Shown: positions 10,212 to 26,065, numbered from the stretch's first letter. The stretch: 64,000 bases of DNA from a virus (IMGVR_UViG_3300025889_000071), one strand, 5' to 3'. The notes: generated by a model from the letters alone, not told the origin. Made by a program: numbers and translations.

Positions 10212-10239
10212 TGGGCCCTGTAAAGTGTCCTAGTGATGT
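10212..10239 (+). repeat. Cassette repeat copy 1
   Basis: TGGGCCC TGT AAAGTGT CCTAG TGATGT. Confidence 0.95.
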
Positions 10240-10269
10240 GAGGGAGAGCAATCAACTTCACAACACCAG

Positions 10270-10298
10270 TTGACAACGGTTCTCCGATTTGTTATACT
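10270..10298 (+). promoter_or_regulatory. Sigma70-type promoter
   Basis: TTGACA-17-TATACT. Confidence 0.8.
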
Positions 10299-10358
10299 GA
10301 CCTCATCAAACGAAACACTGTTTGATCTCGTATCCTTCTTCTAACATATTGAAGAAGT

Positions 10359-11597
10359 ATGCAAAAACCCACACTTTTTCAAACTTCAATTATGCAGACC
10401 AATCAAAATTTTATGATCCCGCTCAAGGAGCCTATTAGTCTTCTTGAATATGCTTACCTTCTGCTTAAGACCCGTAAGTTTTGTGCTCCAGAGCAATTCC
10501 AACGCCCTGAAGCATGGCAAGTAAAGGATCGTAAATCATTTTTTCAATCAGTGTTGATGAATCGTGCAGAAGGCACTCTTGTCTTGGTTGATATTCAACA
10601 ATGTATCGAACGTATGGAATATGGCGGAGATACAAGTAGCGATACTTATAAATTTTTCAAAAAATACTTTAATGAAGGGTTCAAGTATTTTGTTCTAGAT
10701 GGTAACAACCGTCTGTGCTTTATCACTTCTCTTCTAGAAGATAATTATCTTATTCCCGAAGGGACTTACGAATTTATCAGTGATGAAGTCAACGGAAACA
10801 TTTCATCATTTACTGTTCGCAAGGGAAAGCAAAAGTTCTCTGACCTGCCTACACGAGTTCAACGTGTTATTCAATCTCGAAAGTCTGTGTTGAGTGTCTA
10901 TACTCAAATTACCTTGGAAGGTATGTCTGAAGTGTTCCAAAATGTGAACTCTGGTGTTCCTCTTAACGCACAAGAACTTCGCAACGCATATTCTTCTCCT
11001 TGGGCTGAGTTTTTTCGCGATCTTTCAAAGGAGGTTGCACCTCTTCTTGGTTACACTCACAAAGACCCCATTTTCCGTCTTAAGGGTCAAGAATGGTTGG
11101 TTGATTGTATTGCCATGGCAATTGATGGAATTGCAATCAATGAAGTTACTGGAGAACTTCAATTTACTGGAGTTACACAAACATCTAAAAACAAACTGTA
11201 TAAGAGCACTTTCTTTACTCAAGAGGAGCAAAACTTCTATACTAATAAATTCATTGAATTGATGGATTTCATTTCTCAAATGCTCCATGATGAAATTCTT
11301 GAAGAAAAATCTCTCAAGCAAAAATCTAAAATCCAAAATCTTTATTGGATGATGACAACTGTTGATGGAATTGAGACCTATGATCAAGCAGTTGCAGCTG
11401 TTGAAAAGCAAGAAATTGCTTATCTTGACAAGCAACGTAAGTTTGGTGAAGAGGACAAAACCTTCCGTCAATGTTGTGAAGGCATGAATGCTGAAAACTT
11501 GGAGGTTCGATACACAATTCTTACCGAAATTCTTACCGAAGTGGTCGGTGAGCGCAATGATTTCTCTACTCTCAATGAAGTTTTTGAAAGTGTCTGA
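10359..11597 (+). CDS. DUF262 (GmrSD N-terminal/ParB-Srx-like) domain protein
   Basis: FQRPEAW, VLDGNNRL and FQNVNSGVPLNAQE match the DUF262 motif order. Confidence 0.7.
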   Translation: MQKPTLFQTSIMQTNQNFMIPLKEPISLLEYAYLLLKTRKFCAPEQFQRPEAWQVKDRKSFFQSVLMNRAEGTLVLVDIQQCIERMEYGGDTSSDTYKFFKKYFNEGFKYFVLDGNNRLCFITSLLEDNYLIPEGTYEFISDEVNGNISSFTVRKGKQKFSDLPTRVQRVIQSRKSVLSVYTQITLEGMSEVFQNVNSGVPLNAQELRNAYSSPWAEFFRDLSKEVAPLLGYTHKDPIFRLKGQEWLVDCIAMAIDGIAINEVTGELQFTGVTQTSKNKLYKSTFFTQEEQNFYTNKFIELMDFISQMLHDEILEEKSLKQKSKIQNLYWMMTTVDGIETYDQAVAAVEKQEIAYLDKQRKFGEEDKTFRQCCEGMNAENLEVRYTILTEILTEVVGERNDFSTLNEVFESV

Positions 11598-11645
11598 ACC
11601 TTGCGTTAGTTAGGAAGGAGTTTCAAGGGTTCTTTGAGTAATCAT

Positions 11646-11673
11646 TGGGCCCTTCAAAGTGTTTTAGTTCTGT
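11646..11673 (+). repeat. Cassette repeat copy 2
   Basis: TGGGCCC TTC AAAGTGT TTTAG TTCTGT. Confidence 0.95.
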
Positions 11674-11686
11674 AACCATCTATTCT

Positions 11687-11878
11687 ATGAAACGAGAATT
11701 TATCTGCGTTCAACCAAAATCCAATAAAGCAAAGAATCGTTTTGCTAATGAGATGGATAAACTTCATTCTTGTGTTGTTGAACAACGCACAGGAGGAAAG
11801 GTGTTTCTATCTTCTATCAGTGGAAAATACTCTTTTTGGATGAGTGAATCCTCTGATGATAACTGGGACGTTATTTAG
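11687..11878 (+). CDS. Small hypothetical phage protein
   Basis: ATG 14 nt after repeat 2 (MKREFICVQPKS...); the track's longer start lies inside the repeat. Confidence 0.7.
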   Translation: MKREFICVQPKSNKAKNRFANEMDKLHSCVVEQRTGGKVFLSSISGKYSFWMSESSDDNWDVI

Positions 11879-12008
11879 CACTAGGCATAAATTTTTGTTG
11901 CCAAATGTCCTGATTTTCACACATTTTTGATAAATAGTGATAGAATTATGAGGTACACCCATGAATCCGTATTCTACATTATGATGTTCAATGTGCTTGG
12001 AGGATATT

Positions 12009-12185
12009 ATGCACAATCTTATTTCTTACAATCAACTTGCGGGTTGGAAGCAATTTGAAACGACACTGAATCATTTCAATGAGCAAAGCGATGTCATCAA
12101 TGATTACTACCAATGTTTAATAGAATGTGATGACAAACAGCATATCTGCAAAAAAATTTGTAAGGAGGTGCTCAATCAAGAATAA
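12009..12185 (+). CDS. Small Cys-containing hypothetical protein, probably late-expressed
   Basis: GGAGG RBS at 11998-12002 and late-type GATAAATA at 11929-11936. Confidence 0.7.
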   Translation: MHNLISYNQLAGWKQFETTLNHFNEQSDVINDYYQCLIECDDKQHICKKICKEVLNQE

Positions 12186-12198
12186 TAATAATACATAG

Positions 12199-12230
12199 CC
12201 CTTGACGTAACCCGTCAGGGGTTTTATACT
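12199..12230 (+). promoter_or_regulatory. Overlapping terminator-like hairpin and sigma70 promoter
   Basis: Stem CCCTTGACG/CGTCAGGGG followed by TTTT; TTGACG-17-TATACT. Confidence 0.75.
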
Positions 12231-12238
12231 AAAACTGG

Positions 12239-12676
12239 ATGGTAAATCTCATGAAACTGCAACCTCTTCTTCTGGCATTAACTGTTTTTTGTTCTGCTGC
12301 TCCTGCAAGTGCAGAGGTTTATATGTATCATGAATCATATTGCTATGAGAATATAGAAGAATATGTGCCAGGGTATCGTAATCGTTGGGGAAGATATGTT
12401 GGTGGTTATGTAAAGACAACTAGATCTAGAGTTCCATGCCACAGACATAGAAGTTATAGATCTGAACATCATCACTATCATTCCAATAACAACAATAATC
12501 AAAGCAAATCTAATGGAAAGAAAGACGATAATTCATGTATTGAAGGAAGTATATTAGGTGGTATTGCTGGTGGTGGTGCCGGTGCAGCTTTGTCTAGAGG
12601 AGATGGACGCTTTTGGGCGATTCCTACAGGCATTGTAGCTGGTGCATTAGTTGGATGTCAAATTGATGGCGGCTAA
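12239..12676 (+). CDS. Secreted/membrane protein with C-terminal glycine-zipper
   Basis: Signal peptide (LLLALTVFCSAAPASA) and GSILGGIAGGGAGAAL...GIVAGALVG. Confidence 0.75.
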   Translation: MVNLMKLQPLLLALTVFCSAAPASAEVYMYHESYCYENIEEYVPGYRNRWGRYVGGYVKTTRSRVPCHRHRSYRSEHHHYHSNNNNNQSKSNGKKDDNSCIEGSILGGIAGGGAGAALSRGDGRFWAIPTGIVAGALVGCQIDGG

Positions 12677-12704
12677 ACAAAAAAACATAGTCACTTATGT
12701 AACC

Positions 12705-12863
12705 ATGAATCTGGGGCAAGACAATACGTTTTGCAAATATCCTGGTAAAATGGTTACTATAGGAACGATGTCAATTGCACTATACTGGTTAGTAATGCTT
12801 GGTATGGTTGTAAACGCATATTATCATCATCACATCAACGTTGATATTGTTACAAAGTGTTAA
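12705..12863 (+). CDS. Small putative membrane protein
   Basis: One hydrophobic segment; start uncertain. Confidence 0.4.
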   Translation: MNLGQDNTFCKYPGKMVTIGTMSIALYWLVMLGMVVNAYYHHHINVDIVTKC

Positions 12864-12940
12864 GCAAATAAAAAGAGAATCTTAAAAAAACGGATCAGGT
12901 CAAAAATTCATAGTAAAATATTTTGAATCACACATAATCA

Positions 12941-13102
12941 ATGACCCGACCATCAAAATCCACCGAACTCACTCAAGAAGAGTGGAACGATATGAAAGCA
13001 ATCCGAAATGCTATCAAAGAAAGACCACATTCAGTTCATCCTGATAAGATGGAGGCATTTACAGAGTATTTGATTCGTAGCATGAGGGGAATGGATTGTT
13101 GA
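12941..13102 (+). CDS. Small hypothetical protein
   Basis: Hand-translated MTRPSKSTELTQEEW...; stop abuts repeat 3. Confidence 0.55.
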   Translation: MTRPSKSTELTQEEWNDMKAIRNAIKERPHSVHPDKMEAFTEYLIRSMRGMDC

Positions 13103-13105
13103 AAC

Positions 13106-13133
13106 TGGGCCCTTCAAAGTGTTCTGTTAATGT
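13106..13133 (+). repeat. Cassette repeat copy 3
   Basis: TGGGCCC TTC AAAGTGT TCTGT TAATGT. Confidence 0.95.
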
Positions 13134-13153
13134 AAGCACCATTCCAATGTAGC

Positions 13154-13336
13154 ATGATAGATTTAGATAAACTTTCGCACGAAGAAAAGGAAGCCCTTGC
13201 AGAAGATTGTGAGGACTATCTTTTACATCGTAACATTCCTCTCTTTTCGCATTCATATGATAACATCATTTTACATGCGTTAAGAGAGGGTTATCAGATA
13301 AAAAAGTTCGATCGTTTCACGAATAAACCACAATGA
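13154..13336 (+). CDS. Small hypothetical protein
   Basis: ORF directly downstream of repeat 3. Confidence 0.65.
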   Translation: MIDLDKLSHEEKEALAEDCEDYLLHRNIPLFSHSYDNIILHALREGYQIKKFDRFTNKPQ

Positions 13337-13479
13337 ACAATAAAAAAACAAACAAATCAAATCGTCAAGAAGAAAAATTTTGGAATCAAATTGAAAAGGA
13401 AGCTTCAAAGTATGAAGTAACCGTTGATTATTATTTGGATGAATTTGTTATTGATAATCAATACTTCATGAAAGATTGA
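13333..13479 (+). CDS. Small hypothetical protein
   Basis: ATGA overlap with the previous gene; hand-translated. Confidence 0.5.
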   Translation: MNNKKTNKSNRQEEKFWNQIEKEASKYEVTVDYYLDEFVIDNQYFMKD

Positions 13480-13504
13480 CAAGGACTTCATTTTTTATTA
13501 TACT
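13476..13504 (+). promoter_or_regulatory. Sigma70-type promoter
   Basis: TTGACA-17-TATACT. Confidence 0.75.
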
Positions 13505-13527
13505 TTTGAGGTAATCTAACCAAATCA

Positions 13528-13764
13528 ATGACAAAGTATTTCTACACTGTTGACCACTTCATTCCCTTTCCCCGTTCTGAATATGGTGGAGTGTGGGTTG
13601 TTGTTGCCGAAAATGATGAAGAATGTTTTGATCTGATCACTGCTGAAGATGAAGGAGCGAACGATGACTATTATGGTCGTCTTCGTGAAAACATCATGAA
13701 GGCACCAACATATGCTCTTGCTGAAGAGTATGATTCTGGTATTGTGGAGCAATTTACGACATGA
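13528..13764 (+). CDS. Small hypothetical phage protein
   Basis: GAGG RBS; downstream of a promoter. Confidence 0.7.
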   Translation: MTKYFYTVDHFIPFPRSEYGGVWVVVAENDEECFDLITAEDEGANDDYYGRLRENIMKAPTYALAEEYDSGIVEQFTT

Positions 13765-14048
13765 ATCTCAAAGATATTGAATTTGGTCATAAACCACCAA
13801 AAGGATTTCGGTATGAGGTAAGAGATTTCAAACGTAATGTTATTTCTATTTGGTTATGTCATCCAAATGTATACACATACAAATCTGAACCCATAAAAAC
13901 AATCTGGGGATTTTATGATACCAAGAAAAAACAATATCTTGCTCCTAAAGATTGTAAAACTGTAGGTAAAGTTGTAGATTTTGCAGATACAAGAAATTAT
14001 ACTGCGATGCAACTCAATCTAAATCCTCTAGAGAGAGCTTTTTTATGA
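13761..14048 (+). CDS. Small hypothetical phage protein
   Basis: ATGA-coupled to the previous gene. Confidence 0.7.
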   Translation: MNLKDIEFGHKPPKGFRYEVRDFKRNVISIWLCHPNVYTYKSEPIKTIWGFYDTKKKQYLAPKDCKTVGKVVDFADTRNYTAMQLNLNPLERAFL

Positions 14049-14317
14049 CATATACGCCAAAGGTTAATGATTATGTAAAATGGCATCATGGCGAATTTAT
14101 TGATGAAGGATGGGTTTATTTTCGATGTAGTGATTACATCACAATTGAAGTTGGAACAAAGGATAAACCAGATACATTAGTTGATATTCACAAGAAGACT
14201 CACATTCTTGTTGTATGTCAAAACTGGTATTGGCACGAGTTAGAGTATCTCCACAGTCGTGGGGATATTGGTGTAAGTGAGTATAAATCTCAAGAACATA
14301 GACCCATTGACCCTTAA
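14045..14317 (+). CDS. Small hypothetical phage protein
   Basis: ATGA-coupled. Confidence 0.65.
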   Translation: MTYTPKVNDYVKWHHGEFIDEGWVYFRCSDYITIEVGTKDKPDTLVDIHKKTHILVVCQNWYWHELEYLHSRGDIGVSEYKSQEHRPIDP

Positions 14318-14320
14318 ATC

Positions 14321-14464
14321 ATGTATCAAGTGAATTATCTTAAACCTAAAAAGAAAGGTTTTGCAAATCATTCAGCATCTTTCATCAAAATTGAAGATGC
14401 TATTTTTTGGGAGAAACTCAAAAAGACAGAGGGATGTAAGGATTTTCAAATTCTGGTTAAGTAA
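14321..14464 (+). CDS. Small hypothetical phage protein
   Basis: Hand-translated MYQVNYLKPKKKG...; stop 3 nt before repeat 4. Confidence 0.65.
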   Translation: MYQVNYLKPKKKGFANHSASFIKIEDAIFWEKLKKTEGCKDFQILVK

Positions 14465-14467
14465 AAC

Positions 14468-14495
14468 TGGGCCCTCTAAAGTGTTCCACTATTGT
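14468..14495 (+). repeat. Cassette repeat copy 4
   Basis: TGGGCCC TCT AAAGTGT TCCAC TATTGT. Confidence 0.95.
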
Positions 14496-14514
14496 AATCA
14501 ACGATTCACACAAA

Positions 14515-14655
14515 ATGGATTGGTTCGACGACATTCAAATTGAAGAACTTTCTAACTTTGATTATCAAGAAGATCCTCTCGAAGAGGAACTCTTTGAAGA
14601 AAACAATGATGAGAAAGCTTTTCAAGCATTTCTAAAGTCTAACTGGGATTTTTGA
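14515..14655 (+). CDS. Small acidic hypothetical protein
   Basis: Hand-translated MDWFDDIQIEE... Confidence 0.6.
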   Translation: MDWFDDIQIEELSNFDYQEDPLEEELFEENNDEKAFQAFLKSNWDF

Positions 14656-14694
14656 TCTAAACATTTATAACTTTTCACCTCAACTGTACTCAAA

Positions 14695-14874
14695 ATGAAC
14701 TCTTCTAGCACTCTTTACGAACTCCAAGAACTCAAGAAACTCTGGAGGAATCAATCTTTCTACTTTTCTCAAGAGCAAAAGAAACGTTATGAAGAACTTA
14801 CGAAACTTCGTCATGCTCGTGTCAAAGAATTGTATGAAAATGATATGGTCTTCAAACCTGGAGTAACTAAATAA
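14695..14874 (+). CDS. Small hypothetical protein
   Basis: Hand-translated MNSSSTLYELQELKKLW... Confidence 0.6.
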   Translation: MNSSSTLYELQELKKLWRNQSFYFSQEQKKRYEELTKLRHARVKELYENDMVFKPGVTK

Positions 14875-14968
14875 TCTGAATATATGTGGGCAGTCAACGC
14901 TGCAGGGGTGTAATGTTGACGTAAGTCCCACTTTATGTTATAAATAATGATACCCCTGCAAAAGAATT

Positions 14969-15277
14969 ATGAAAGATGTATTCGCGTCCCTGCAAGAAAT
15001 GGAGTGGGACGACTATATCCCACCCGAAGATATTATCTCCATTCATGATACCGACTTCACAAAACTTCCACGCTGCGAATGGAAGACTAAAAGGTATTGG
15101 TGGAATAATGGAGTTGATGAAACATTGCAAGAAAAATGTCCTCCTGGATGGAAAAGGGGCAGGGCAATGAGTGAAGAGCATAAAAATAAATTTAAATGTC
15201 AACCTGGCAGGCAAAAAGGTATCCCAAAAAATACAAACAGAAAAAGAGACAGTAAAGGGAGAGTTTGTGGCAGTTGA
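14969..15277 (+). CDS. Homing-endonuclease-derived DNA-binding protein (NUMOD3-like) with no visible nuclease domain
   Basis: WWNNG...CPPGWKRGR followed by MSEEHKNK; TATAAATA late promoter at 14939-14946. Confidence 0.55.
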   Translation: MKDVFASLQEMEWDDYIPPEDIISIHDTDFTKLPRCEWKTKRYWWNNGVDETLQEKCPPGWKRGRAMSEEHKNKFKCQPGRQKGIPKNTNRKRDSKGRVCGS

Positions 15278-15344
15278 AGAGGTGTCCCTGACCCCTTGAC
15301 TTCTAGCGGCAATAAATATAAGATATGAGTAGTCAAGAACACCA

Positions 15345-15914
15345 ATGAAAACCTTTTCTTCTTTTTTAGCAGAAGTTTATGATCGTGATGTCATGGGTTC
15401 TTCACAAATTCGCAAACAAGGCGAAGGTGGAAGAGTTGGAGCTGATCGTAGAAAGACAGAAGCTGAAAAGCGTCGCACCAAGTTAGGACCAGGAGGAACA
15501 AGAGTTCCTGCTAAATCTTACAAACCAAGAAAAGATATTGGTACGCAAAGACAAGCATCTACAAGATTGCAGCAACCAGAGAAAGAAAGAGGTGCTGCTG
15601 ATGTAAAAGCAAGAGCAGCTGCAGCAGCAAAGGAAGAAAGAAAGAAAGCAGCACAGGCAAGAATTGCTGCAAGAAAAGCAGGCAAACCTGCACCAACAGC
15701 ACAAAAACCAAAATCAAAAGATGCTGAAAAGGAAGGCACTAAATTACTCTCAAAAAAAGGGACTACTCAAAAGAAAACTGGTGAGAAAATTGAAAGAACA
15801 ACTTCACGCCAATACACCAGAGATGAAAAGAAAAGAATGGTAAGAGCTGGCAAGAGATTGCAAAAAGATTTGCAAAAAGGAGTTGATAGACCTGCTTCAC
15901 ATTACCAACCATAA
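15345..15914 (+). CDS. Basic protein with a T4-like capsid-targeting N-terminus (internal head protein candidate)
   Basis: MKTFSSFLAE resembles the T4 internal-protein CTS MKTYQEFIAE; Lys/Arg/Ala-rich; AATAAATA at 15311-15318. Confidence 0.6.
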   Translation: MKTFSSFLAEVYDRDVMGSSQIRKQGEGGRVGADRRKTEAEKRRTKLGPGGTRVPAKSYKPRKDIGTQRQASTRLQQPEKERGAADVKARAAAAAKEERKKAAQARIAARKAGKPAPTAQKPKSKDAEKEGTKLLSKKGTTQKKTGEKIERTTSRQYTRDEKKRMVRAGKRLQKDLQKGVDRPASHYQP

Positions 15915-15920
15915 TCTCAC

Positions 15921-15948
15921 TGGGCCCTTCAAAGTGTCCTTGTAGTGA
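15921..15948 (+). repeat. Cassette repeat copy 5
   Basis: TGGGCCC TTC AAAGTGT CCTTG TAGTGA. Confidence 0.95.
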
Positions 15949-15962
15949 GTCCATAATCGTCC

Positions 15963-15999
15963 ATAACACCCTTGACACTGACGTTGAGGGTGTTATACT
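15963..15999 (+). promoter_or_regulatory. Sigma70 promoter embedded in an inverted repeat
   Basis: TTGACA-16-TATACT within the ATAACACCCT/AGGGTGTTAT palindrome. Confidence 0.75.
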
Positions 16000-17455: not shown

Positions 17456-17483
17456 TGGGCCCTTCAAAGTGTCCTTATAGTAT
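17456..17483 (+). repeat. Cassette repeat copy 6
   Basis: TGGGCCC TTC AAAGTGT CCTTA TAGTAT. Confidence 0.95.
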
Positions 17484-18381
17484 GCAGAACAAACACATCG
17501 AACACCCCGAAGATTTTATTCTCACTGGTGACTTATCTGTTTTGGATTGGTTTTGTGAGGATGACAGTTATGTTTCTCTCAAGATTGATGGTGCTCCCGC
17601 TATTGTTTGGGGTATCAATCCTGCCACCAATCAATTCTTTGTAGGAACCAAATCAGTTTTCAACAAGAAACTAATTAAAATCAATGAAACGCATGATGAC
17701 ATTGATCAGAATCATTCTGGCAATGTTGCTAACATATTACACCATTGTTTTGATTACCTTCCTCGTATCAACGGGATTATTCAAGGTGATTTTATTGGGT
17801 TCGGTGGTAGTGATACTTTTCAGCCCAATACGATTACTTACAAGTTTCCGGAGACGATAACTCAAAACATTATCATTGCTCCACACACTTTTTATACGGC
17901 AGAGCATGATCTTCGAGATGCTATTGCACAACCATTGAAGTTCACTATCACTGACACAATGTATTGTAAGATTGTGCATCCTGATGCGTGGATTCTTGAT
18001 GACATTGATTTGCACAAGTCTGCACGATTTGCACGTCAGATGTCAACTCTGGTTGAATTTGCGACACCAAAGCAACTTCCACTCATCAAGAAAGTTCTCA
18101 ATACCTACTTCAAGATTGGTGCAGAGATTGATGAGGATGAAATTGCATATATTGCACAATGTGATGTCAACCTGATTCGGCTTTGGAAGTTGGTAAGGTC
18201 TATCAAACAGGATATGCTTTACATGTGTCAGAATGATTCTGATATGCAATGTGAAATCAATGATGAAGAAGTTGATCATGAAGGTTATGTTTGCACAAAT
18301 CAGTTTGGTACATACAAACTGGTAGATCGCGAGGTCTTTAGTCGCCAAAATTTTATTAACGATAAAGTATGGGCCCCTTAA
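17482..18381 (+). CDS. Ligase-fold nucleotidyltransferase-like protein
   Basis: KIDG (motif I), QGD, HEGYV and KLV motifs in ligase order; stop lies within repeat 7. Confidence 0.6.
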   Translation: MQNKHIEHPEDFILTGDLSVLDWFCEDDSYVSLKIDGAPAIVWGINPATNQFFVGTKSVFNKKLIKINETHDDIDQNHSGNVANILHHCFDYLPRINGIIQGDFIGFGGSDTFQPNTITYKFPETITQNIIIAPHTFYTAEHDLRDAIAQPLKFTITDTMYCKIVHPDAWILDDIDLHKSARFARQMSTLVEFATPKQLPLIKKVLNTYFKIGAEIDEDEIAYIAQCDVNLIRLWKLVRSIKQDMLYMCQNDSDMQCEINDEEVDHEGYVCTNQFGTYKLVDREVFSRQNFINDKVWAP

Positions 18382-18397
18382 AGTGTCCTATTGATGA
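18370..18397 (+). repeat. Cassette repeat copy 7
   Basis: TGGGCCC CTT AAAGTGT CCTAT TGATGA. Confidence 0.95.
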
Positions 18398-18410: not shown

Positions 18411-18986
18411 ATGAATCTAACTGCAATCGTTGAACTCTATGAGACTGAAGTTGATCAACTTCCCCAGACTCATTTTGAGTTAGGTGGTGGTGCTGCTCGT
18501 TCTGAATCTGGTTTGGTTTATGAGAACCTGATTGAACGTACTTGTAATGAACTGGCTTTAGATGCCCGCAAAAATGATTACAAAAGCACTGAAGTAGTTG
18601 ATGGCACTTGCCTGAAGAATCTTCAAGTTGATAAGCACATCTATCGTAATGGTGTGATGGTAAAAGCAGTAGAATCTAAAACATATTTGGATGCTTGCTA
18701 TCTGAAACGTGCTGTAATGGATTTCATCGAACTGGAGCAATCTCCTGAAGTTCCTGAATGGGTAGAGTACGCAATCTTTGCAGGACAAAATGCTTGTGGT
18801 AAAGATGCTTTTGCATACTATCAAGCATTTTTCAAAAAGATTACTGGCAAAGAAGTAAAGATCTTCTTTGTGAATCCTTCCCGCAAGCGTTCATCTTCTC
18901 GCCCCATCTACAAGGAAGAGTATCGTGAAGATTTTAAGCTTGACTCTGTAGTGTATAATGAGTTTGTGGAATGGTTGAACAAGTGA
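18411..18986 (+). CDS. Putative PD-(D/E)XK restriction endonuclease
   Basis: LQVDKH...KAVESKTYLD gives a D...E-x-K core; translationally coupled to an MTase. Confidence 0.6.
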   Translation: MNLTAIVELYETEVDQLPQTHFELGGGAARSESGLVYENLIERTCNELALDARKNDYKSTEVVDGTCLKNLQVDKHIYRNGVMVKAVESKTYLDACYLKRAVMDFIELEQSPEVPEWVEYAIFAGQNACGKDAFAYYQAFFKKITGKEVKIFFVNPSRKRSSSRPIYKEEYREDFKLDSVVYNEFVEWLNK

Positions 18987-19724: not shown

Positions 19725-19752
19725 TGGGCCCCTTAAAGTGTCCTATTGATGT
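19725..19752 (+). repeat. Cassette repeat copy 8
   Basis: TGGGCCC CTT AAAGTGT CCTAT TGATGT. Confidence 0.95.
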
Positions 19753-19763
19753 AGGTAAAGATT

Positions 19764-20279
19764 ATGATTTCACTTCCTAACCCAAACAGAACCATGATTG
19801 TTGAATCTACCAATTCTGAAACTTTTTCTGATTTCTGTGCTCAACGTGATGCACAGAATACCATTCAGTTGAATGTCACCAAGTATTGTTTTATGCTTTG
19901 TGATGCACTGCTGAAGAATTTCATTGATTACAGCATCAAGTCTCATCAACGTGCGATTGCTAACTACAACTACACTTATGGTAATGATGATTCAACTCAA
20001 TCAAATTATCATCAGGCATGTATTGAAGACCTGAAGAATGGTCAATGTGGTTATGAGTTCACTGTAGAGTCTGGTCGTAAGTATCACAAAATTATGATGA
20101 GTGCCAATGGTTCTCGTTCCGTTCATGCTTTTGTTGATAGAAAGACTGGCGAAGTTTACAAACCTGCCAGTATCAAAGCTCCTGCCAAAGGTGTTCGTTA
20201 TGACTTGCGATTGATTGAACAACGTGAATGGTTGTTTGAAAATGCAGATTGGGCAGGAGGGTATCTTTATAAGAGGTAA
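19764..20279 (+). CDS. Hypothetical phage protein
   Basis: ORF directly after repeat 8; contains SVHAFVDRKTGEVYKPAS. Confidence 0.75.
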   Translation: MISLPNPNRTMIVESTNSETFSDFCAQRDAQNTIQLNVTKYCFMLCDALLKNFIDYSIKSHQRAIANYNYTYGNDDSTQSNYHQACIEDLKNGQCGYEFTVESGRKYHKIMMSANGSRSVHAFVDRKTGEVYKPASIKAPAKGVRYDLRLIEQREWLFENADWAGGYLYKR

Positions 20280-20483: not shown

Positions 20484-20676
20484 ACAACAACTTGTTGATG
20501 CACTTCAACATGAATATGAGTACATGATTCATGATGATTATGATCCTGATGTTGATATGACTCTGGAAGAACATCTTGAATGGTTACATACACTGACCAT
20601 TCAAGAATTGGTTGAAGAAACATCAACCGATGAAGATTATTATACGCTTGATCAATTCATGTATAATCATTCATGA
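20464..20676 (+). CDS. Small acidic hypothetical protein
   Basis: ORF track; start probably 20467 or 20470. Confidence 0.65.
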   Translation: MMMNYTKQQLVDALQHEYEYMIHDDYDPDVDMTLEEHLEWLHTLTIQELVEETSTDEDYYTLDQFMYNHS

Positions 20677-20807
20677 CAAGTAAAGAAAAACTTCTGTTCA
20701 TTTCATCATTCGTTTGGTTTCTACACTGGGGAACATGTCTAGCATCTACACTTCTGGATACGGTTATTCTAAAAAGCTCTGTGAGAGTGTTACCTCTTGG
20801 TTTTTGA
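20673..20807 (+). CDS. Small hydrophobic hypothetical protein
   Basis: ATGA-coupled MTSKEKLLFISSFVWFLHWG...; overlaps the next gene in another frame. Confidence 0.4.
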   Translation: MTSKEKLLFISSFVWFLHWGTCLASTLLDTVILKSSVRVLPLGF

Positions 20808-21157
20808 AGAAGTATTATCCACGTCATAAGATTGATGTGGATATTTTACATCGTGGATTGAGACGTGAAAATGTACTGGGGTATTGTGATGTAGTTGGTC
20901 CTTCTTATCGACCAAGACATTTCCTGATTGAACTTCAGACCGATATGTGTAAGGAGTTGTATATAAAAACTCTTTTACATGAATTGACTCATCTTGCACA
21001 ATGGGTAAGAGGTGATCTACGACACCGATATGGAAAATTGTGTTATTCACAAGAACCAGTGGAAATCTATGACTATGAAGATCAACCACATGAAATTGAA
21101 GCACGAGAGGAAGAAGAAAGACTCTACAATCTGTACTGTAATGAAATCTTAACATAG
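20735..21157 (+). CDS. Zn-metallopeptidase-like protein (HExxH)
   Basis: LLHELTHLAQW...PHEIEA. Confidence 0.75.
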   Translation: MSSIYTSGYGYSKKLCESVTSWFLKKYYPRHKIDVDILHRGLRRENVLGYCDVVGPSYRPRHFLIELQTDMCKELYIKTLLHELTHLAQWVRGDLRHRYGKLCYSQEPVEIYDYEDQPHEIEAREEEERLYNLYCNEILT

Positions 21158-21186
21158 TTGCACTTAAGAATTTCTTCAACTACAAT
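21158..21186 (+). promoter_or_regulatory. Sigma70-type promoter
   Basis: TTGCAC-17-TACAAT. Confidence 0.6.
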
Positions 21187-21194
21187 AAAGAAAA

Positions 21195-21386
21195 ATGGAA
21201 AATGGTCAAGAGATGCAAGCTATCAGGGACTTTCTAACAGATGAGCAGTGGCACATTGTGATTGATGCTATCGAACAAGAAGCATTTTTATTGGATGAAA
21301 GTGAGGAGTATTTTGATAAGTGTGAGGACATTATAAACAGAATCCATTCATTGCTTCACATTACTGGGCCCTCTAAAGTGTCCTAG
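21195..21386 (+). CDS. Small acidic hypothetical protein
   Basis: The last codons (TGPSKVS*) are read through repeat 9. Confidence 0.6.
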   Translation: MENGQEMQAIRDFLTDEQWHIVIDAIEQEAFLLDESEEYFDKCEDIINRIHSLLHITGPSKVS

Positions 21387-21392
21387 TTGTAT
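21365..21392 (+). repeat. Cassette repeat copy 9
   Basis: TGGGCCC TCT AAAGTGT CCTAG TTGTAT. Confidence 0.95.
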
Positions 21393-21735
21393 GAAGACCA
21401 CTATGAAAGAAAACAAGATGACAACACTTTTCCGTCAAGGAATCAAATTTGAAGAGTATTGGGGCACTGAAGTTCGTGCTCATCATATGAACACTCGTTC
21501 TGTTTATCGTCTGCTGGAAGATGATGACATTGCGATCACACATTCCGCACCATATGTTGATGGTGAAAGTGTTGATCAATTTGCTGTAACTTTCACCGAA
21601 GTTACTGCATATCATGAGAATGGAAATGTGTTATCATCAACCACAAAAACACTTGGAGTTTATGATAACTGGTTGGATGCTTATTACCGAGCATTCTCTA
21701 TTCTAAACAAGAAAACATTAGCACAACTTGTGTGA
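21391..21735 (+). CDS. Hypothetical protein
   Basis: ORF track; start could be 21403 or 21418. Confidence 0.65.
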   Translation: MKTTMKENKMTTLFRQGIKFEEYWGTEVRAHHMNTRSVYRLLEDDDIAITHSAPYVDGESVDQFAVTFTEVTAYHENGNVLSSTTKTLGVYDNWLDAYYRAFSILNKKTLAQLV

Positions 21736-21737
21736 TC

Positions 21738-21968
21738 ATGAGAATTGACATTGTAGGTCGAATTATCGGAAGCTTTCTGGTTGTTTCTGCTTATTTTGTT
21801 GTTTTACATGTAAATGTAACATTTGGAGTTCTGATGCACTTCATTGCCGATGCAATTTCCATTCCATTCTTTATACGAACAAAGTCATGGGATGTTGTAA
21901 TTATGTTGGCATTTCTTTTAATCATTTCAACTAGCAAACTGTTCAATTTGGGAGGAATCGTATCATGA
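21738..21968 (+). CDS. Small multi-pass membrane protein
   Basis: Two to three hydrophobic helices. Confidence 0.65.
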   Translation: MRIDIVGRIIGSFLVVSAYFVVLHVNVTFGVLMHFIADAISIPFFIRTKSWDVVIMLAFLLIISTSKLFNLGGIVS

Positions 21969-22108
21969 AATGGGATGTGAAACTGTATGTTGCCGGAAAG
22001 GTATTTACCGAAGAAGTTTATGCCCGAGATGCACAAGATGCAAGGGAGACAGCATTAGCACGAAATCCCACTGCTAAAGTTATTGGAGTGAATGGGAGTT
22101 TCAAATAG
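21965..22108 (+). CDS. Small hypothetical phage protein
   Basis: Hand-translated MKWDVKLYVAGKVF...; TAG stop directly abuts repeat 10. Confidence 0.7.
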   Translation: MKWDVKLYVAGKVFTEEVYARDAQDARETALARNPTAKVIGVNGSFK

Positions 22109-22136
22109 TGGGCCCCTTAAAGTGTCTCATTAGTGT
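22109..22136 (+). repeat. Cassette repeat copy 10
   Basis: TGGGCCC CTT AAAGTGT CTCAT TAGTGT. Confidence 0.95.
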
Positions 22137-22153
22137 AAGCACAGTTCAGAAAA

Positions 22154-22318
22154 ATGCAAGAATCAAAGTTCCTTCTTCACGGTCAACATCATCGTTCTAA
22201 TGGTTGGGTGATGAATGATTGTTTAGGTTACATCAAAGAAACAAAAGAGGATGCGATTGCTACATGTAATCGACTCAATCCTAACTTTGTGATTCACTCT
22301 ATCACTGTTGAAGAATGA
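22154..22318 (+). CDS. Small hypothetical protein
   Basis: Hand-translated MQESKFLLHGQHH... Confidence 0.6.
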   Translation: MQESKFLLHGQHHRSNGWVMNDCLGYIKETKEDAIATCNRLNPNFVIHSITVEE

Positions 22319-22358
22319 CCAAAGCAACACACAAACGATTCACACACATCTTTTGATT

Positions 22359-22511
22359 ATGAACGAAACTGAACTCGAAGCTCTTGAAGTGATGGAAACC
22401 ATTGAGGATTCCGTTGAATATATTTGTAATGAGTATATGTTAAGTGGAGAGAAAGTTTGGACTATGATTGCAGCACTTGCTGATGCAAAGATTGCACAAT
22501 TTCCTGATTGA
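22359..22511 (+). CDS. Small hypothetical protein
   Basis: First ATG of the tracked ORF. Confidence 0.6.
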   Translation: MNETELEALEVMETIEDSVEYICNEYMLSGEKVWTMIAALADAKIAQFPD

Positions 22512-22518
22512 TAATGAG

Positions 22519-22546
22519 TGGGCCCTTGAAAGTGTTTCAGTAGTGT
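22519..22546 (+). repeat. Cassette repeat copy 11
   Basis: TGGGCCC TTG AAAGTGT TTCAG TAGTGT. Confidence 0.95.
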
Positions 22547-22567
22547 AAGTCGTTCGTTATTTCAGTC

Positions 22568-22819
22568 ATGCAACTCACTTCCAAAGATGGTAACATGGTT
22601 GTTGATTTCTATCCCGTCAAATTTGCAGACGGTGGGATTCACAATCGTTTGATGCTCAAAGTTGTGACTTTTATTGGTGCAACTCAATCCAAATCTTACA
22701 TCAACAAGAAAGATTTTCAGCATGAGGTTGATTCTCGTGTGAAGGGTTATGGTTATCAAGTCACTGATGATTCGATGATTCCACAACTCTTTAACTCTGC
22801 AATGTGTCTTGCTTGCTGA
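22568..22819 (+). CDS. Small hypothetical phage protein
   Basis: ORF after repeat 11. Confidence 0.7.
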   Translation: MQLTSKDGNMVVDFYPVKFADGGIHNRLMLKVVTFIGATQSKSYINKKDFQHEVDSRVKGYGYQVTDDSMIPQLFNSAMCLAC

Positions 22820-23010
22820 TGTCAATTATTCAATCTTATCTTCACAATAAAATGATGGATCGTCTTGAAATGCTTTCTCAACGTGAACAATTGATGGAGG
22901 ACATTGATTGTATTGTATCGGCACAATATGGTCAAGGAAATGAAGAACTTGCTGATGAAATGATTAAGTTGTTATGTGATGCTGTTTGCAAAAACTTTCC
23001 TGCTAACTGA
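22819..23010 (+). CDS. Small hypothetical protein
   Basis: TGATG coupling. Confidence 0.6.
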   Translation: MSIIQSYLHNKMMDRLEMLSQREQLMEDIDCIVSAQYGQGNEELADEMIKLLCDAVCKNFPAN

Positions 23011-23246
23011 TGTCATTTGTTTCCACCTTTGATCATACTAATTCCATGACTGACAACATCATCAACCGTGACGAATTGCAGGACAATCTTATTCATCAGA
23101 TTCTGGATGATATGGATTTGAAGACGATGTATGCTTGCTTATATGATTACATGTCTGAAAGCTATGACAAGTATTCAGTTGATGAAATTGTCGAAGAAGT
23201 CGAAGAGTATTACCCACAATTGTTGGAGGATGCAGATAACTCTTAA
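23010..23246 (+). CDS. Small acidic hypothetical protein
   Basis: TGATG coupling. Confidence 0.65.
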   Translation: MSFVSTFDHTNSMTDNIINRDELQDNLIHQILDDMDLKTMYACLYDYMSESYDKYSVDEIVEEVEEYYPQLLEDADNS

Positions 23247-23317
23247 AACATGTCAATTTACAAAGATTACTGGACTAAACCAAAACCAACGAAAGAACCC
23301 AAATCAAAAGAATCCAA

Positions 23318-23473
23318 ATGAAAACATCATTTTGTAATGGCAATTCATGGTCTAAATTTGATGCTTACTATCATGATGATAGTGAACAATGGACTTATGA
23401 ATTGATTGATGGACATCACCGCACAAGTTTAATTTACGAGGATAATGATGATGAAATTCTACAAGATTACTGA
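23318..23473 (+). CDS. Small acidic hypothetical protein
   Basis: Hand-translated MKTSFCNGNSWSKFDAYY... Confidence 0.45.
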   Translation: MKTSFCNGNSWSKFDAYYHDDSEQWTYELIDGHHRTSLIYEDNDDEILQDY

Positions 23474-23645
23474 TATTGAGTTTGATTTTGATTATGAAGA
23501 CATTACATTGGAGGAACAGAATGAAGTGATCGAAGGTGCCAAAGCTTGTCTATGGGATGCAACAAATGAGGATGATCTTTGTGATGTCATTAGTGACAAC
23601 ACCGGATGGTTTGTGAAGTCATTCTCTTATGATGTTATTCGATAA
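23445..23645 (+). CDS. Small acidic hypothetical protein
   Basis: ORF track; GAGGA RBS. Confidence 0.65.
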   Translation: MMMKFYKITDIEFDFDYEDITLEEQNEVIEGAKACLWDATNEDDLCDVISDNTGWFVKSFSYDVIR

Positions 23646-23652
23646 CAAACAC

Positions 23653-23680
23653 TGGGCCCCTTAAAGTGTTTCAGTAGTGT
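23653..23680 (+). repeat. Cassette repeat copy 12
   Basis: TGGGCCC CTT AAAGTGT TTCAG TAGTGT. Confidence 0.95.
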
Positions 23681-23702
23681 AGAAACGAAACAACTCTCTC
23701 AA

Positions 23703-23870
23703 ATGTCTCAACAACTCAATGCTTCTATCTATCGTCAACTCTTCACTGATTGTGAGTGGGATGCTATCTCTTCTGCAATGAAAGATTATGCTGATTATGG
23801 TGACGAAGAAGCAAACATTGCTGATTCGATTGATGCAAAGATCACTCAAATTTTCAAACTTACTGCCTGA
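23703..23870 (+). CDS. Small hypothetical protein
   Basis: Hand-translated MSQQLNASIYRQLFT... Confidence 0.65.
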   Translation: MSQQLNASIYRQLFTDCEWDAISSAMKDYADYGDEEANIADSIDAKITQIFKLTA

Positions 23871-23872
23871 TT

Positions 23873-24034
23873 ATGTTACATCAACTCCCTAACGGTAAAA
23901 TCATCATGCACGATGGATTAATCCGTGAACTTGCTATTCAACGAATGGAAACTTATGATCGTTGGATACAAGACAATCGTGAACAATTAAAGATCGAATC
24001 TCAACAACTTTTCGATGATATGTTCGGAGGTTAA
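23873..24034 (+). CDS. Small hypothetical protein
   Basis: Hand-translated MLHQLPNGKIIMHDG... Confidence 0.6.
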   Translation: MLHQLPNGKIIMHDGLIRELAIQRMETYDRWIQDNREQLKIESQQLFDDMFGG

Positions 24035-24105
24035 TTCTTTCAATGACTCCGAAATCTTCCGAGGTTTTCCGAGTCGAGTCACGCCCCTAATTTTATCAAA
24101 AAACT

Positions 24106-24318
24106 ATGATTCTTCTGACATCTGATTCTCACGGTTGTGTGTATACTATTGACAGTGAAGGTTGTTTATACTATATGCCCAAACATCTTGATGGATCAAT
24201 TAACTTTGAAGAACTTGCAGAAGTTGAATCTGTTGATGAATTAGATGATGAAGATACTTCTCAAATTCATTCTCAATTGATTACAATGTCCAAATCAATT
24301 GGTCATTACTTCTGTTAG
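24106..24318 (+). CDS. Small acidic hypothetical protein
   Basis: TAG stop directly abuts repeat 13. Confidence 0.65.
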   Translation: MILLTSDSHGCVYTIDSEGCLYYMPKHLDGSINFEELAEVESVDELDDEDTSQIHSQLITMSKSIGHYFC

Positions 24319-24346
24319 TGGGCCCCTGAAAGTGTTTCAATAGTAT
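24319..24346 (+). repeat. Cassette repeat copy 13
   Basis: TGGGCCC CTG AAAGTGT TTCAA TAGTAT. Confidence 0.95.
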
Positions 24347-24363
24347 AGGATACCATTTCTCTC

Positions 24364-24708
24364 ATGCGTAAGATCGAACAACAAATGAACAATGCCATTT
24401 CTAACAACAAGTCCTGGCAATCTGCAAACACCAGTGTTGTTTGTGATGACAATGGTGTCTCTCATGTGTATCTTCATGGCAACAAGATTGCAGAGGTTGG
24501 TGATGACTTTGTTCAGATCTTTGATGGTGGTTGTCAATCCAATACCACCAAATCCCGTCTGAATGCTATTCTCAAAGAACATGCAATTGATGGTGAGTGT
24601 GTGTATCAAAAGAACTTCAAATGGTATGTTGATAAGTTCATTGGATGTGCCGGAACTTTCAAGGTTTATAACACTTTCGAGTTCACTGATGGTTTCATGT
24701 TTGCCTGA
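24364..24708 (+). CDS. Hypothetical phage protein
   Basis: MRKIEQQMNNAI...TTKSRLNAIL; directly after repeat 13. Confidence 0.75.
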   Translation: MRKIEQQMNNAISNNKSWQSANTSVVCDDNGVSHVYLHGNKIAEVGDDFVQIFDGGCQSNTTKSRLNAILKEHAIDGECVYQKNFKWYVDKFIGCAGTFKVYNTFEFTDGFMFA

Positions 24709-24713
24709 TTGAT

Positions 24714-25517
24714 TTAACTCTCTTCTCTATACCATCTGCAACCCTTCCAACTATATCTGGAAGGGTTTTTTAATGCCTTCGTTACACCTGTAGCTTTGCC
24801 GCTACCTAACACTCTACCCGCTTCTCTTATACTATCAAAGTGATATATGATTTTCCCGTCTAATATACGCTTGCCATAGATTTTATGGGAGTAAGGTCTA
24901 TTATCTAATTTCTCCCACTTATATCCATATGCCACAATCTTCTGTTTGATTGCTCTACTGATGTTGCCAGAACCTCCTTTGATTCCTATACTCTTCCGCG
25001 CTTCAGTTATGCTATCAAATTCAAGAACTTCTCCCGTCTCGACATTAGTTGCTCTGACTTTTCTCCTAGCATGTTTACCATCACCGCTCTTATCTCCGAA
25101 TGGATTAACCCCTTGATATTTGTCTTTTAGAGTATTACGTATTGAAGCAATATGTTCAGGAGACTTTTCTTTCCCTTGCATAGTTGTTGATATTCTATCC
25201 CGAACTTCTTCGCTTATCTCTTTTGCTTGTTCTCCGCCTGTTGTTAGATTGTATCCGTTGTTAAATGTATCAAACTGTTCTATCCAATATCTCTCCCTAT
25301 CCGAGAGTTGCGCCGCTGGGATATTAGTTTCTATTTCACGGACAGTAAACATAGAGACGCCATATTTCTTGATTGCTCTATACAATGGTCTGTGTGATTT
25401 ACTCTTCGATTCTGTTATATGATGCCGCCATCTTTCGCCCACGGTCTTGATAGTCTGACCGATATATCTCTTGCCATTTACCTTACAAATGATTGAGTAG
25501 ATTGTCCCAGTTGTCAT
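24714..25517 (-). CDS. Free-standing GIY-YIG homing endonuclease with NUMOD3/NUMOD1-like DNA-binding domains
   Basis: GTIYSII...RYIGQT...RWRHH...LYRAIKKYG...ERYWIEQFDT...GYN; FDSITEAR and FDSIREAG NUMOD1-like units. Confidence 0.9.
   Translation of the reverse strand: MTTGTIYSIICKVNGKRYIGQTIKTVGERWRHHITESKSKSHRPLYRAIKKYGVSMFTVREIETNIPAAQLSDRERYWIEQFDTFNNGYNLTTGGEQAKEISEEVRDRISTTMQGKEKSPEHIASIRNTLKDKYQGVNPFGDKSGDGKHARRKVRATNVETGEVLEFDSITEARKSIGIKGGSGNISRAIKQKIVAYGYKWEKLDNRPYSHKIYGKRILDGKIIYHFDSIREAGRVLGSGKATGVTKALKNPSRYSWKGCRWYREES
24740..24772 (+). terminator. Intrinsic terminator on the + strand, lying inside the endonuclease ORF
   Basis: Perfect 10-bp stem AACCCTTCCA/TGGAAGGGTT followed by a T-run. 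Confidence 0.8.
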
Positions 25518-25794
25518 AAGATAGCGTGTGATAGAAGGCTTTACTATGTATGATAAAATGCCCCGCTAAATGGTGTCTATATAAAGGTTTAGCGAATTTA
25601 TTGTTAGTAACTCCGAATGCACTGTGTAGTTACTTTGGGGCGTATTTACAGTGTTTTTAATGTGTCTAGGAGTAGTGATTTTAGACTGCCCCAGCTTATC
25701 ACACCACCGAGAAATTGTCAACCCCCCGATGTCAGAATTTCCAGAAATAAGACTTACAAAAATCACACTGATTCTGATAAATACCTGCAATGAC

Positions 25795-25823
25795 TTGACA
25801 GAAATGCTCTGTTAGATTATACT
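25795..25823 (+). promoter_or_regulatory. Sigma70-type promoter with a hairpin over -35
   Basis: TTGACA-17-TATACT; TGACAGA/TCTGTTA stem. Confidence 0.8.
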
Positions 25824-25852
25824 ATAAAAGTCACTCAAATCCCCCCAAAGAT

Positions 25853-26026
25853 ATGTCAGTTGCTTATCGCCAGGCACAGAAACAGCGTTATCGCATTACT
25901 CTTGAGCTTGATGTAATGCATGACTTCGACCCGCACCAGCTTGATTGGGAGAAACTCTTTGAGCTGGAACCGGCAGAGAAGGTGACAGCTTATGTGGAGG
26001 ACTTGAGCACACCGGACTTTTGGTGA
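25853..26026 (+). CDS. Small hypothetical phage protein
   Basis: Hand-translated MSVAYRQAQKQRYRITLELDV... Confidence 0.7.
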   Translation: MSVAYRQAQKQRYRITLELDVMHDFDPHQLDWEKLFELEPAEKVTAYVEDLSTPDFW

Positions 26027-26037
26027 GTTATAAACAG

Positions 26038-26065
26038 TGGGCCCTGTAAAGTGTTCTAGTAGTAT
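26038..26065 (+). repeat. Cassette repeat copy 14
   Basis: TGGGCCC TGT AAAGTGT TCTAG TAGTAT. Confidence 0.95.

Follow-up and report, generated by a model that had tools for sequence, protein, structure and literature searches.

The 64,000-nucleotide stretch of viral DNA analyzed here (IMGVR_UViG_3300025889_000071; hereafter the window) carries an array of 14 co-oriented copies of a short element, TGGGCCC-N3-AAAGTGT followed by a −10-like hexamer. The window belongs to a T4-like cyanomyovirus whose DNA identity to cultured marine Synechococcus phages is only ~73–77%. We propose that the elements are probably a lineage-specific class of promoters, in which a specificity box at the −35 position would be read by a putative factor. 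The proposal rests on a comparison of genomes. The TGGGCCC box is swapped jointly at all copies between genomes, orthologous promoters included. We believe that the new feature is a hypervariable, genome-uniform specificity box layered on a conserved core.

A pattern scan of the window returned exactly 14 matches to TGGGCCC-N3-AAAGTGT, all on the + strand and all within 10212–26065, and zero matches across 100 dinucleotide-preserving shuffles of the same sequence. The scan confirmed the 14 + strand starts, the invariant core and the fixed spacing described in an earlier note on this DNA. Alignment of the 14 copies defined an element of ~35 bp that comprises A-C/G/T-TGGGCCC, N3, AAAGTGT, N5, the hexamer and a short conserved tail, with the window box reading (A)CTGGGCCC. 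Both the N3 and the N5 spacing are constant throughout. All 14 copies have the same box, against six variants of N3 and 11 of N5. Of the 16 GGGCCC hexamers in the 64 kb, 14 lie within elements. The hexamer T is invariant at element positions 23 and 26, and 13 of the 14 copies match AAAGTGT-N5-T[ATG][ATG]T[AG][AT]. The upstream stop codon lies 3–14 nt from the element start in 11 copies, overlaps it in two, and is 51 nt away in one. The next long open reading frame (ORF) starts at element position 27 in two copies, at positions 40–51 in nine, and more than 100 nt away in three (10212, 15921 and 26038). Every element leads a unit of 1 to ~6 ORFs, as the earlier note had stated with a slightly narrower range of 1–5 genes.

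Allowing up to two mismatches added a single site at 57045, with TTGGCCC in place of the box and no hexamer behind it. This near-copy (57045–57061, TTGGCCC-TCT-AAAGTGT) is one mismatch from the 17-mer, has no TAGTRT, and is flanked by a T4-type late promoter, TATAAATA (57030), and by the gp15 ATG (57066). It may be a relic or a chance match; the cultured phage S-SM2 has no box copy outside its early block.

The element belongs to a family found in other phages. S-SM2 is the closest cultured relative by protein identity (DUF6267 62% identical) and shows the same architecture, GGGGGGTCG-N3-AAAG(C/T)GT-N5-TAGTRT, in 11–12 copies, all on the + strand at 42.7–58.5 kb and none elsewhere. In SynMITS9220M01 (SynMITS below) the box is TTACTCACC, with 12 copies at 36.3–50.0 kb, and the single-cell-associated virus AG-345-O18 has four copies. 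In IMG/VR, the exact 17-mer occurs in at least 111 loci and at least 315 copies, with no locus carrying it on both strands. The conserved half, AAAGYGT-N5-TAGTRT, occurs in at least 185 loci and 635 copies, again never on both strands of one locus. All copies of every locus share a strand with the genes. A stop codon lies 2–15 nt 5′ of the element in most of 538 family copies, and ~8% of family copies are far from any start codon. In a logo of 218 unique copies chosen solely by the 14 fixed bases of TGGGCCC-N3-AAAGTGT, the hexamer is near-invariant (T23 98%, A24 94%, G25 88%, T26 100%, T28 97%) and is followed by R-A-g-C-A. The lineage-wide conserved module is AAAGYGT-N5-TAGTRT-RA.CA. The earlier note had called the hexamer −10-like, often TAGTRT. 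The window hexamer resembles a −10 box less closely than that note suggested, with A at the second position in only nine of 14 copies.

The family has clear limits. The 17-mer, with up to two mismatches, had no match in Syn9, S-SM1, S-SM2, S-H25, S-SCSM2R or S-CRM01; in S-CRM01, this TGGGCCC form was the sole form searched. The AAAGYGT class had no match in Syn9, S-PM2, P-SSM2, P-SSM5, P-HM2, S-SM1, S-H25, S-SRM01, S-SKS1, Bellamy or S-BM3, and scanning Syn9 with the family position-weight matrix gave no match either. The 28-mer that includes the hexamer had zero matches in 185,579 prokaryote species, each represented by one genome, which excludes the element being a copy of a host sequence.

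Box identity varies sharply from genome to genome. Searching IMG/VR with the conserved half yielded at least 15 types of 7-mer at the TGGGCCC position, including TGGGCCC, TGGATCC, TGGATCG, TGGGGCC, ACTCACC, GCTCACC, AGTAACC, GGGGACG, GGGGTCG, TGAAGCC, TGAGCCA, TGAGGCT, TGTAGCT and GGGAGCC. Only 10 of 486 elements (2%; 77 loci) differ by three or more bases from the box of their own genome, and some of these are chance matches. Box type is not congruent with the backbone phylogeny: UvsW is up to 95% identical across different boxes, and its identity falls to 34% among same-box phages. Two loci, L192 and L057, have 95% identical UvsW and 93% identical DUF6267 and share one orthologous element together with its flanks, with ~91% DNA identity in the gene 5′ of it. 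This element reads CTTGGATCC-tct in L192 and ACTGGGCCC-ctg in L057, and each locus has its own box at all its remaining copies. Likewise, the window, S-SM2 and SynMITS each have a different box at the orthologous DUF6267 promoter. A gene that is 91–93% identical in five loci always has the resident genome's box in front.

Because the box is identical in all 14 window copies while N3 and N5 have drifted, it appears to be held by selection and not by simple homogenization. The N3 and N5 variation therefore indicates that the window copies have existed long enough for drift at the positions that tolerate it. Uniformity within a genome, replacement between near-identical phages and conservation of the core together imply a specific reader. 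The simplest explanation of the joint swap is a trans-acting reader whose specificity differs by phage lineage. S-SM2 and SynMITS both infect marine Synechococcus and have unrelated boxes, and near-identical phages differ in theirs; a phage-specified reader is hence more likely than a host one.

A non-sigma70 box at the −35 position is the reading that best fits these sequences. Taking TAGTRT as −12 to −7 puts the box at −34 to −28 and AAAGYGT at −24 to −18, so that the box would sit where the −35 hexamer, or in T4 the MotA box, is found. The copies in complete genomes all fall within one ~15 kb early-type block, where they are co-oriented and fill stop-to-start gaps. In phages without the class (Syn9, S-SRM01, P-SSM2, P-SSM5, Bellamy and S-BM3), DUF6267 is preceded by a GTGTG.CAG-N8-CTG.CACAC dyad, a gap of 28–31 nt and a TATAAT-like hexamer. 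The element thus takes the position that a promoter, the dyad-plus-TATAAT one, has before the same gene elsewhere. Three window copies lie over 100 nt away from any ORF; two of them are in tandem with a host-like promoter, and the tandem is kept in S-SM2. A promoter fits these three copies and a translation signal does not, because they lie so far from any ORF. In T4, tandem promoters of different classes are normal, whereas a lone translation signal without a gene is not. Six elements folded with their flanks showed no shared RNA fold or hairpin (z-scores −0.4 to +1.5). The earlier note had suggested a promoter class with TGGGC at the −35 position and AAAGTGT as the activator box. The comparative data favor the class itself, but the two roles were probably assigned the wrong way round, with TGGGCCC the variable, specificity-type box and AAAGTGT the invariant part.

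If so, the elements would drive the block of small genes (early or hyperplastic) in a cyanomyovirus of the S-SM2/SynMITS9220M01 lineage. The host RNA polymerase would use the conserved AAAGYGT-N5-TAGTRT module, and a factor specified by the phage lineage, either an early activator or a virion-delivered protein, would read the box as a functional analogue of T4 MotA. Copies identical over ~30 bp, without terminators to separate them, would also be preferred junctions for the gain, loss and exchange of promoter-plus-gene cassettes. A more far-reaching version, which we offer only tentatively, is programmable promoter recognition. Here a fast-evolving, phage-specified and possibly virion-delivered −35 replacer would read at least 15 orthogonal boxes, 10–14 promoters would switch jointly, and transcription would start inside the element to give near-leaderless mRNAs translated from a built-in ATG. 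Such a system would be a MotA-like solution of independent origin, and would hinder or filter the exchange of early cassettes between co-infecting phages.

The search for a protein that could read the box covered the complete genomes of S-SM2 and SynMITS by profile, together with the ORFs of the window array and clade-specific ORFs. Neither genome had a match to Sigma70_r4, and the sole Sigma70_r2 match in the two was gp55-sized. The MotA DNA-binding domain (PF09158) and AsiA (PF09010) were absent at E≤1 from S-SM2, SynMITS9220M01 and two partial relatives. RNA_pol PF00940 had no match in S-SM2 or SynMITS in a search without a positive control. Giant ORFs of the window, considered as hidden virion RNA polymerases, contained only baseplate-type domains. 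Among the array ORFs there was no Pfam or PHROG regulator and no DNA-binding domain. Forty-five S-SM2 ORFs are common to SynMITS and absent from Syn9 and S-SRM01; the ten of these that were scanned showed no DNA-binding domain.

Individual candidates were also rejected. A 189-aa protein (15345–15914), very basic, Gly/Lys/Arg-rich and of low complexity, is encoded directly 5′ of the uvsW element. Most loci of the element-bearing lineage encode it, whereas Syn9 and S-SRM01 do not. Neither Pfam nor PHROG gave a match to it, and it has no informative Atlas neighbor. Its identity does not track box type, being 88% between boxes and down to 43% within one, and we discarded it as the reader. The first gene behind a host-like promoter (9730–10209) has no homologue in S-SM2 or SynMITS. 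An antisense or guide RNA was likewise dismissed, since neither S-SM2 nor SynMITS contains the box in reverse complement at any position.

The earlier note had also suggested that the elements bound exchangeable gene cassettes. Breakpoint comparison upheld this at larger evolutionary distances and not among near-identical relatives. Two close relatives were compared with the window, G001 (L126; 93–98% identical) and G002 (L127; 76–97% identical). They revealed six indel or replacement events, at 12672/12840, 14663–14670, 14874/15363, 22819–22885, 24093/24364 and 24708/25659. Across 130 related loci, which are kin and so do not give independent counts, neighbors flanking an element were adjacent in relatives in 27 of 134 informative cases (20%) versus 88 of 185 (48%) at other junctions. 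With one intervening ORF tolerated, the five informative element junctions scored 0.21–0.80 and seven others 0.76–1.0. Homology blocks ended 1.25–1.56 times per element junction versus 0.60–0.67 times per other gene start, and the material inserted at element junctions usually brings at least one extra element. The same counts would arise if only promoter-bringing insertions survive. In one locus, L105, the closest homologues of a foreign-box cassette lie behind the same foreign box in other genomes, which suggests that cassettes can travel with their own promoter. A role like that of the PeSLs (repeated promoter–stem-loop motifs of T4-type phages), with homologous exchange at repeated promoters, is likely as a side effect.

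Two of the indels have features of their own. The ~450-bp segment at 14875–15362, absent from G001, contains a late promoter of its own, TATAAATA (14939), and an ORF of 102 aa (14969–15277), and looks like a late-expressed moron inserted in an early cassette. The region 24708–25659, which holds a homing endonuclease gene, is replaced by ~266 bp in G002, and the endonuclease is therefore an insertion polymorphism.

The hexamer of the element is often overlapped by a potential start codon. In 277 of 575 family copies, a G after the hexamer creates an ATG at element positions 27–29. In 261 of the 277 (94%; about one third expected), this built-in ATG shares the reading frame of the gene behind it, and the frame stays open for 35 codons or more. 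A second in-frame ATG follows at positions 30–57 in 147 of these 261 copies, mostly at position 42, the usual start in copies without the built-in ATG. The N-terminus of DUF6267, conserved in phages that lack the element, begins at the built-in ATG. The annotated DUF6267 start in P-SSM2 (58678) lies 25 codons downstream of this conserved N-terminus. An apparent ATGA overlap between the upstream stop and the built-in start arose from the way frames were chosen; under the longest-frame rule, only 4 of 538 copies keep it. IMG/VR contig ends showed no clustering at the element.

Several results weigh against a promoter class with its own reader. The searches described above found no candidate reader protein. 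Five of the 14 window hexamers (TGATGT/TGATGA in three copies, TTCTGT and TTGTAT) have no A at the second position (element position 24; A in the other nine), and sigma70-type −10 recognition needs that A. Only one of ~12 recent breakpoints, the right end of the 24093/24364 event, touches an element junction. Finally, in 114 copies (~20%), spread over at least 15 unrelated gene families, DUF6267 among them, the built-in ATG is the only plausible start codon.

This last point bears on where transcription would begin. The start would lie either ~7 nt after TAGTRT, at element positions 33–36, or within TAGT at positions 24–27, where T23/A24 may serve as a pyrimidine/purine start pair and yield nearly leaderless mRNAs. 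The downstream start, which the earlier note had predicted, is doubtful now that about half of the family copies have an in-frame start codon that overlaps the hexamer. It cannot serve the 114 genes, because the built-in ATG is their only start. The upstream start would leave AAGYGT as the one −10-like sequence in which the critical positions are A and T. Possible resolutions are that ATG-only genes are translated solely from read-through RNA, that transcription initiates at positions 24–27, or that the element additionally works in RNA. Conservation of A30, C32 and A33 even in copies without the built-in ATG favors the first. The second is favored by the leaderless geometry of DUF6267 in four phages and by the five hexamers without a second-position A. 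In those phages, P-SSM2 (L228), P-SSM5 (L265), Bellamy (L264) and S-BM3 (L267), the −10 hexamer lies only 5–6 nt before the ATG of DUF6267 (T4-GC 71), and leaderless DUF6267 mRNAs are therefore predicted.

Not every explanation of the array needs a phage-specified reader. The host RNA polymerase, with or without a host factor, could read the elements as promoters whose box is a weak −35 variant kept uniform by gene conversion. Several box types do begin (C/T)TG where the TTG of a −35 would lie, the searches found no phage factor, early genes need transcription before any phage protein exists, and repeats are good recombination substrates. We nevertheless consider this explanation unlikely. Gene conversion should homogenize N3 and N5 as well, yet both vary while the box is the same in 14 of 14 copies. 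Moreover, S-SM2 (GGGGGGTCG) and SynMITS9220M01 (TTACTCACC) have unrelated boxes on marine Synechococcus, boxes differ despite 95% identical UvsW, and the pattern is missing from the 185,579 prokaryote genomes. Were the host polymerase the only reader, the family would merely be one more lineage-specific early promoter. Counting this unlikely case together with the probable one of a lineage-specific reader, a promoter class of one kind or the other is likely.

The element might instead act in RNA, as a module on read-through early transcripts that is recognized, much as by RegA or RegB in T4, by an RNA-binding protein or endoribonuclease specific to the lineage, for processing before the AUG or for translation control. 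We think this quite improbable. The absence of a shared RNA structure (z-scores −0.4 to +1.5) speaks against it, as do the 3 of 14 window copies and ~8% of the family that lie far from start codons, two of the three distant copies preceding a host-like promoter in an arrangement kept in S-SM2. Conservation of A30, C32 and A33 outlasts loss of the ATG, and other cyanomyoviruses have an ordinary promoter at the orthologous position. An RNA module would, on the other hand, suit a built-in ATG that is in frame in 94% of its copies and the sole start in ~20% of all, an element that occupies the entire stop-to-start gap, and an array with few terminators, where read-through RNA is expected. Least credible, in our view, is the integron-like cassette array of the earlier note, in which a recombinase would move cassettes at dedicated sites. 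Gene-content differences of distant relatives do cluster at element junctions, with inserts that usually have their own element, and rare foreign-box cassettes such as that of L105 exist. The same pattern is equally expected from homologous recombination at 30-bp repeats and from selection for promoter-bringing insertions, and only one of ~12 indel breakpoints between near-identical relatives falls at an element junction. No tyrosine recombinase (PF00589) was found in S-SM2, SynMITS, two partial relatives or the ORFs of the window array, where the earlier note had seen none either. The elements also have no attC-type inverted repeat or hairpin, and on these two grounds we reject the integron-like mechanism.

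A promoter class with a lineage-specific box would matter beyond this one virus. T4-like cyanophages are among the most abundant viruses of seas and lakes and lack the T4 MotA/AsiA switch. The element family offers a concrete handle on how the earliest genes of such cyanophages are recognized. The cultured phages S-SM2 (Synechococcus WH8017) and SynMITS9220M01 (MIT S9220) carry different boxes, which makes orthogonality testable. If the reader is phage-encoded, the family would show early cassettes moving between phages yet remaining under lineage-specific control, and would provide research on cyanobacteria with a set of short orthogonal promoters.

The array is bordered on the left by a late fibre operon, closed by a terminator at 9611–9637, and on the right by the baseplate genes gp25, gp6, gp7-like and gp8, with gp15 and gp16 beyond. 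Within it, terminators are scarce. Besides small ORFs without assigned function, it has recognizable genes for a GmrSD-like DUF262 protein, the UvsW helicase, DUF6267, a DNA N6/N4 methyltransferase, DUF7717, a SprT-like protein, Kyano_Gp96 and a GIY-YIG homing endonuclease on the minus strand. The endonuclease (GIY-YIG/NUMOD1, 24714–25517) is the sole minus-strand gene of the array. Near-perfect host-like promoters, TTGACA-N16/17-TATAMT, lie among the elements at 9648, 10270, 13476, 15972, 25795 and 26692. At elements 1 and 5, such a promoter intervenes before the next gene.

All 14 elements are on the + strand. Element 1 (10212–10239), ACTGGGCCC-TGT-AAAGTGT-CCTAG-TGATGT, is followed by a host-like promoter on the same strand (10270–10298, TTGACA-N17-TATACT) and then by an ORF at 10359. 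This ORF (10359–11597) encodes the GmrSD_N (DUF262)-type protein, which has no homologue in S-SM2 or SynMITS9220M01. The hexamer of element 2 (11646–11673) is TTCTGT, with an ORF start at 11687, element position 42. Elements 3 (13106–13133, TAATGT) and 4 (14468–14495, TATTGT) precede ORF starts at 13154 and 14515. Element 5 (15921–15948, TAGTGA) stands in tandem with the + strand host-like promoter at 15972–15999 (TTGACA-N16-TATACT), with uvsW downstream, and S-SM2 has the same tandem. That promoter is set in a hairpin (15963–15996) whose 14-pair stem covers its −35 hexamer and spacer. A comparable hairpin lies within a promoter spacer of Syn9 (~18620–18655, at ~18649), and a comparable sequence lies 3′ of the S-SM2 element at 51940 (~51975–52010).

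The TAGTAT hexamer of element 6 (17456–17483) is overlapped by the DUF6267 ATG at 17482, as also occurs in S-SM2 and SynMITS9220M01 with their own boxes. The DUF6267 stop codon forms positions 10–12 of element 7 (18370–18397, TGATGA), which precedes an ORF start at 18411. Element 8 (19725–19752, TGATGT) leads to the DUF7717 gene, starting at 19764, and in element 9 (21365–21392) the hexamer TTGTAT is overlapped by an ATG at 21391. TAGTGT is shared by elements 10 (22109–22136), 11 (22519–22546) and 12 (23653–23680), with ORF starts at 22154, 22568 and 23703. TAGTAT recurs in element 13 (24319–24346), ahead of the Kyano_Gp96 gene at 24364, and in element 14 (26038–26065), for which the next long ORF, DUF7249, begins at 26156.

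Among known systems, the early-gene element reported for Syn9-type cyanomyoviruses comes closest to that of the window in function, though not in architecture. In Syn9, early genes are reportedly governed by a novel regulatory element and middle genes by host-like promoters, a scheme with which the two promoter classes of the window agree. The early element of Syn9 and P-TIM40 is reportedly, like that of the window, repeated, non-host-like, phage-specific and placed before small early genes. Both Syn9-type phages and the window have host-like TTGACA promoters in the same region, and the DUF6267 position is orthologous. Syn9-type phages have the dyad 28–31 nt 5′ of a TATAAT-like box, and the window array contains neither CTG.CACAC nor GTGTG.CAG. 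Unlike Syn9-type phages, the window has an asymmetric, genome-specific box 15 nt 5′ of the hexamer and an invariant AAAGYGT. Syn9 (NC_008296, L119) also has a repeat family of its own at 46.3–53.1 kb, with up to 24 identical nt, TCGTGTATTCTATAAGAGTCAAAG, in three intergenic regions and diverged copies in two further ones. A GC-rich block lies ahead of these repeats and a TGTG.CAG...GTG.CAC dyad further upstream. The papers examined that cite Doron et al. 2016 (ISME J 10:1437) give no motif for the Syn9 early element. Syn9-type cyanophages are described in PMC5780444 as having neither T4-type middle promoters nor motA/asiA, with Doron et al. 2016 cited for the lack of the latter two.

In the PeSLs (promoter-early stem-loops) of T4-type phages, a stem-loop accompanies a sigma70-like promoter, TTGACA-N17-TATAAT or a close variant of it (Arbiol et al. 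2010, PMC2839356; Comeau et al. 2014, PMC4122927). Both PeSLs and the window elements are repeated promoter-type motifs in hyperplastic early regions, tied to differences in gene content. In contrast to PeSLs, the window elements have no −35 consensus and no stem-loop, and recent indels mostly fall off them. With a stop codon 2–15 nt upstream, there is no room for the PeSL stem-loop. The canonical sigma70 −35 is likewise lacking, as positions 0–7 read CTGGGCCC in the window and bear no relation to this in relatives. The sites sought in the S-SM2 genome paper were limited to the sigma70, T4-late, Pho and NtcA types, and we found no report in the papers searched that pairs AAAGTGT with a cyanophage promoter or describes this element class.

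If the hexamer is a −10, T4 middle promoters and the window elements would follow one functional logic, with a −10-like TAnnnT and a specific box in place of the −35 at about −30. In T4, this is the MotA box, (a/t)(a/t)(a/t)TGCTTtA, centered at −30 and used through AsiA/MotA sigma appropriation. The window box is unrelated to it and varies between close relatives, with an extra AAAGYGT in the spacer, and none of the box types compared resembles TGCTT. T4-like phages are known to use the host RNA polymerase. The T7-type promoters (T7, T3, SP6 and K11) have a similar layout, a contiguous ~25–30 bp with a lineage-specific block joined to a conserved initiation block. Their specificities are orthogonal between relatives, and in both classes the start may lie inside conserved sequence.

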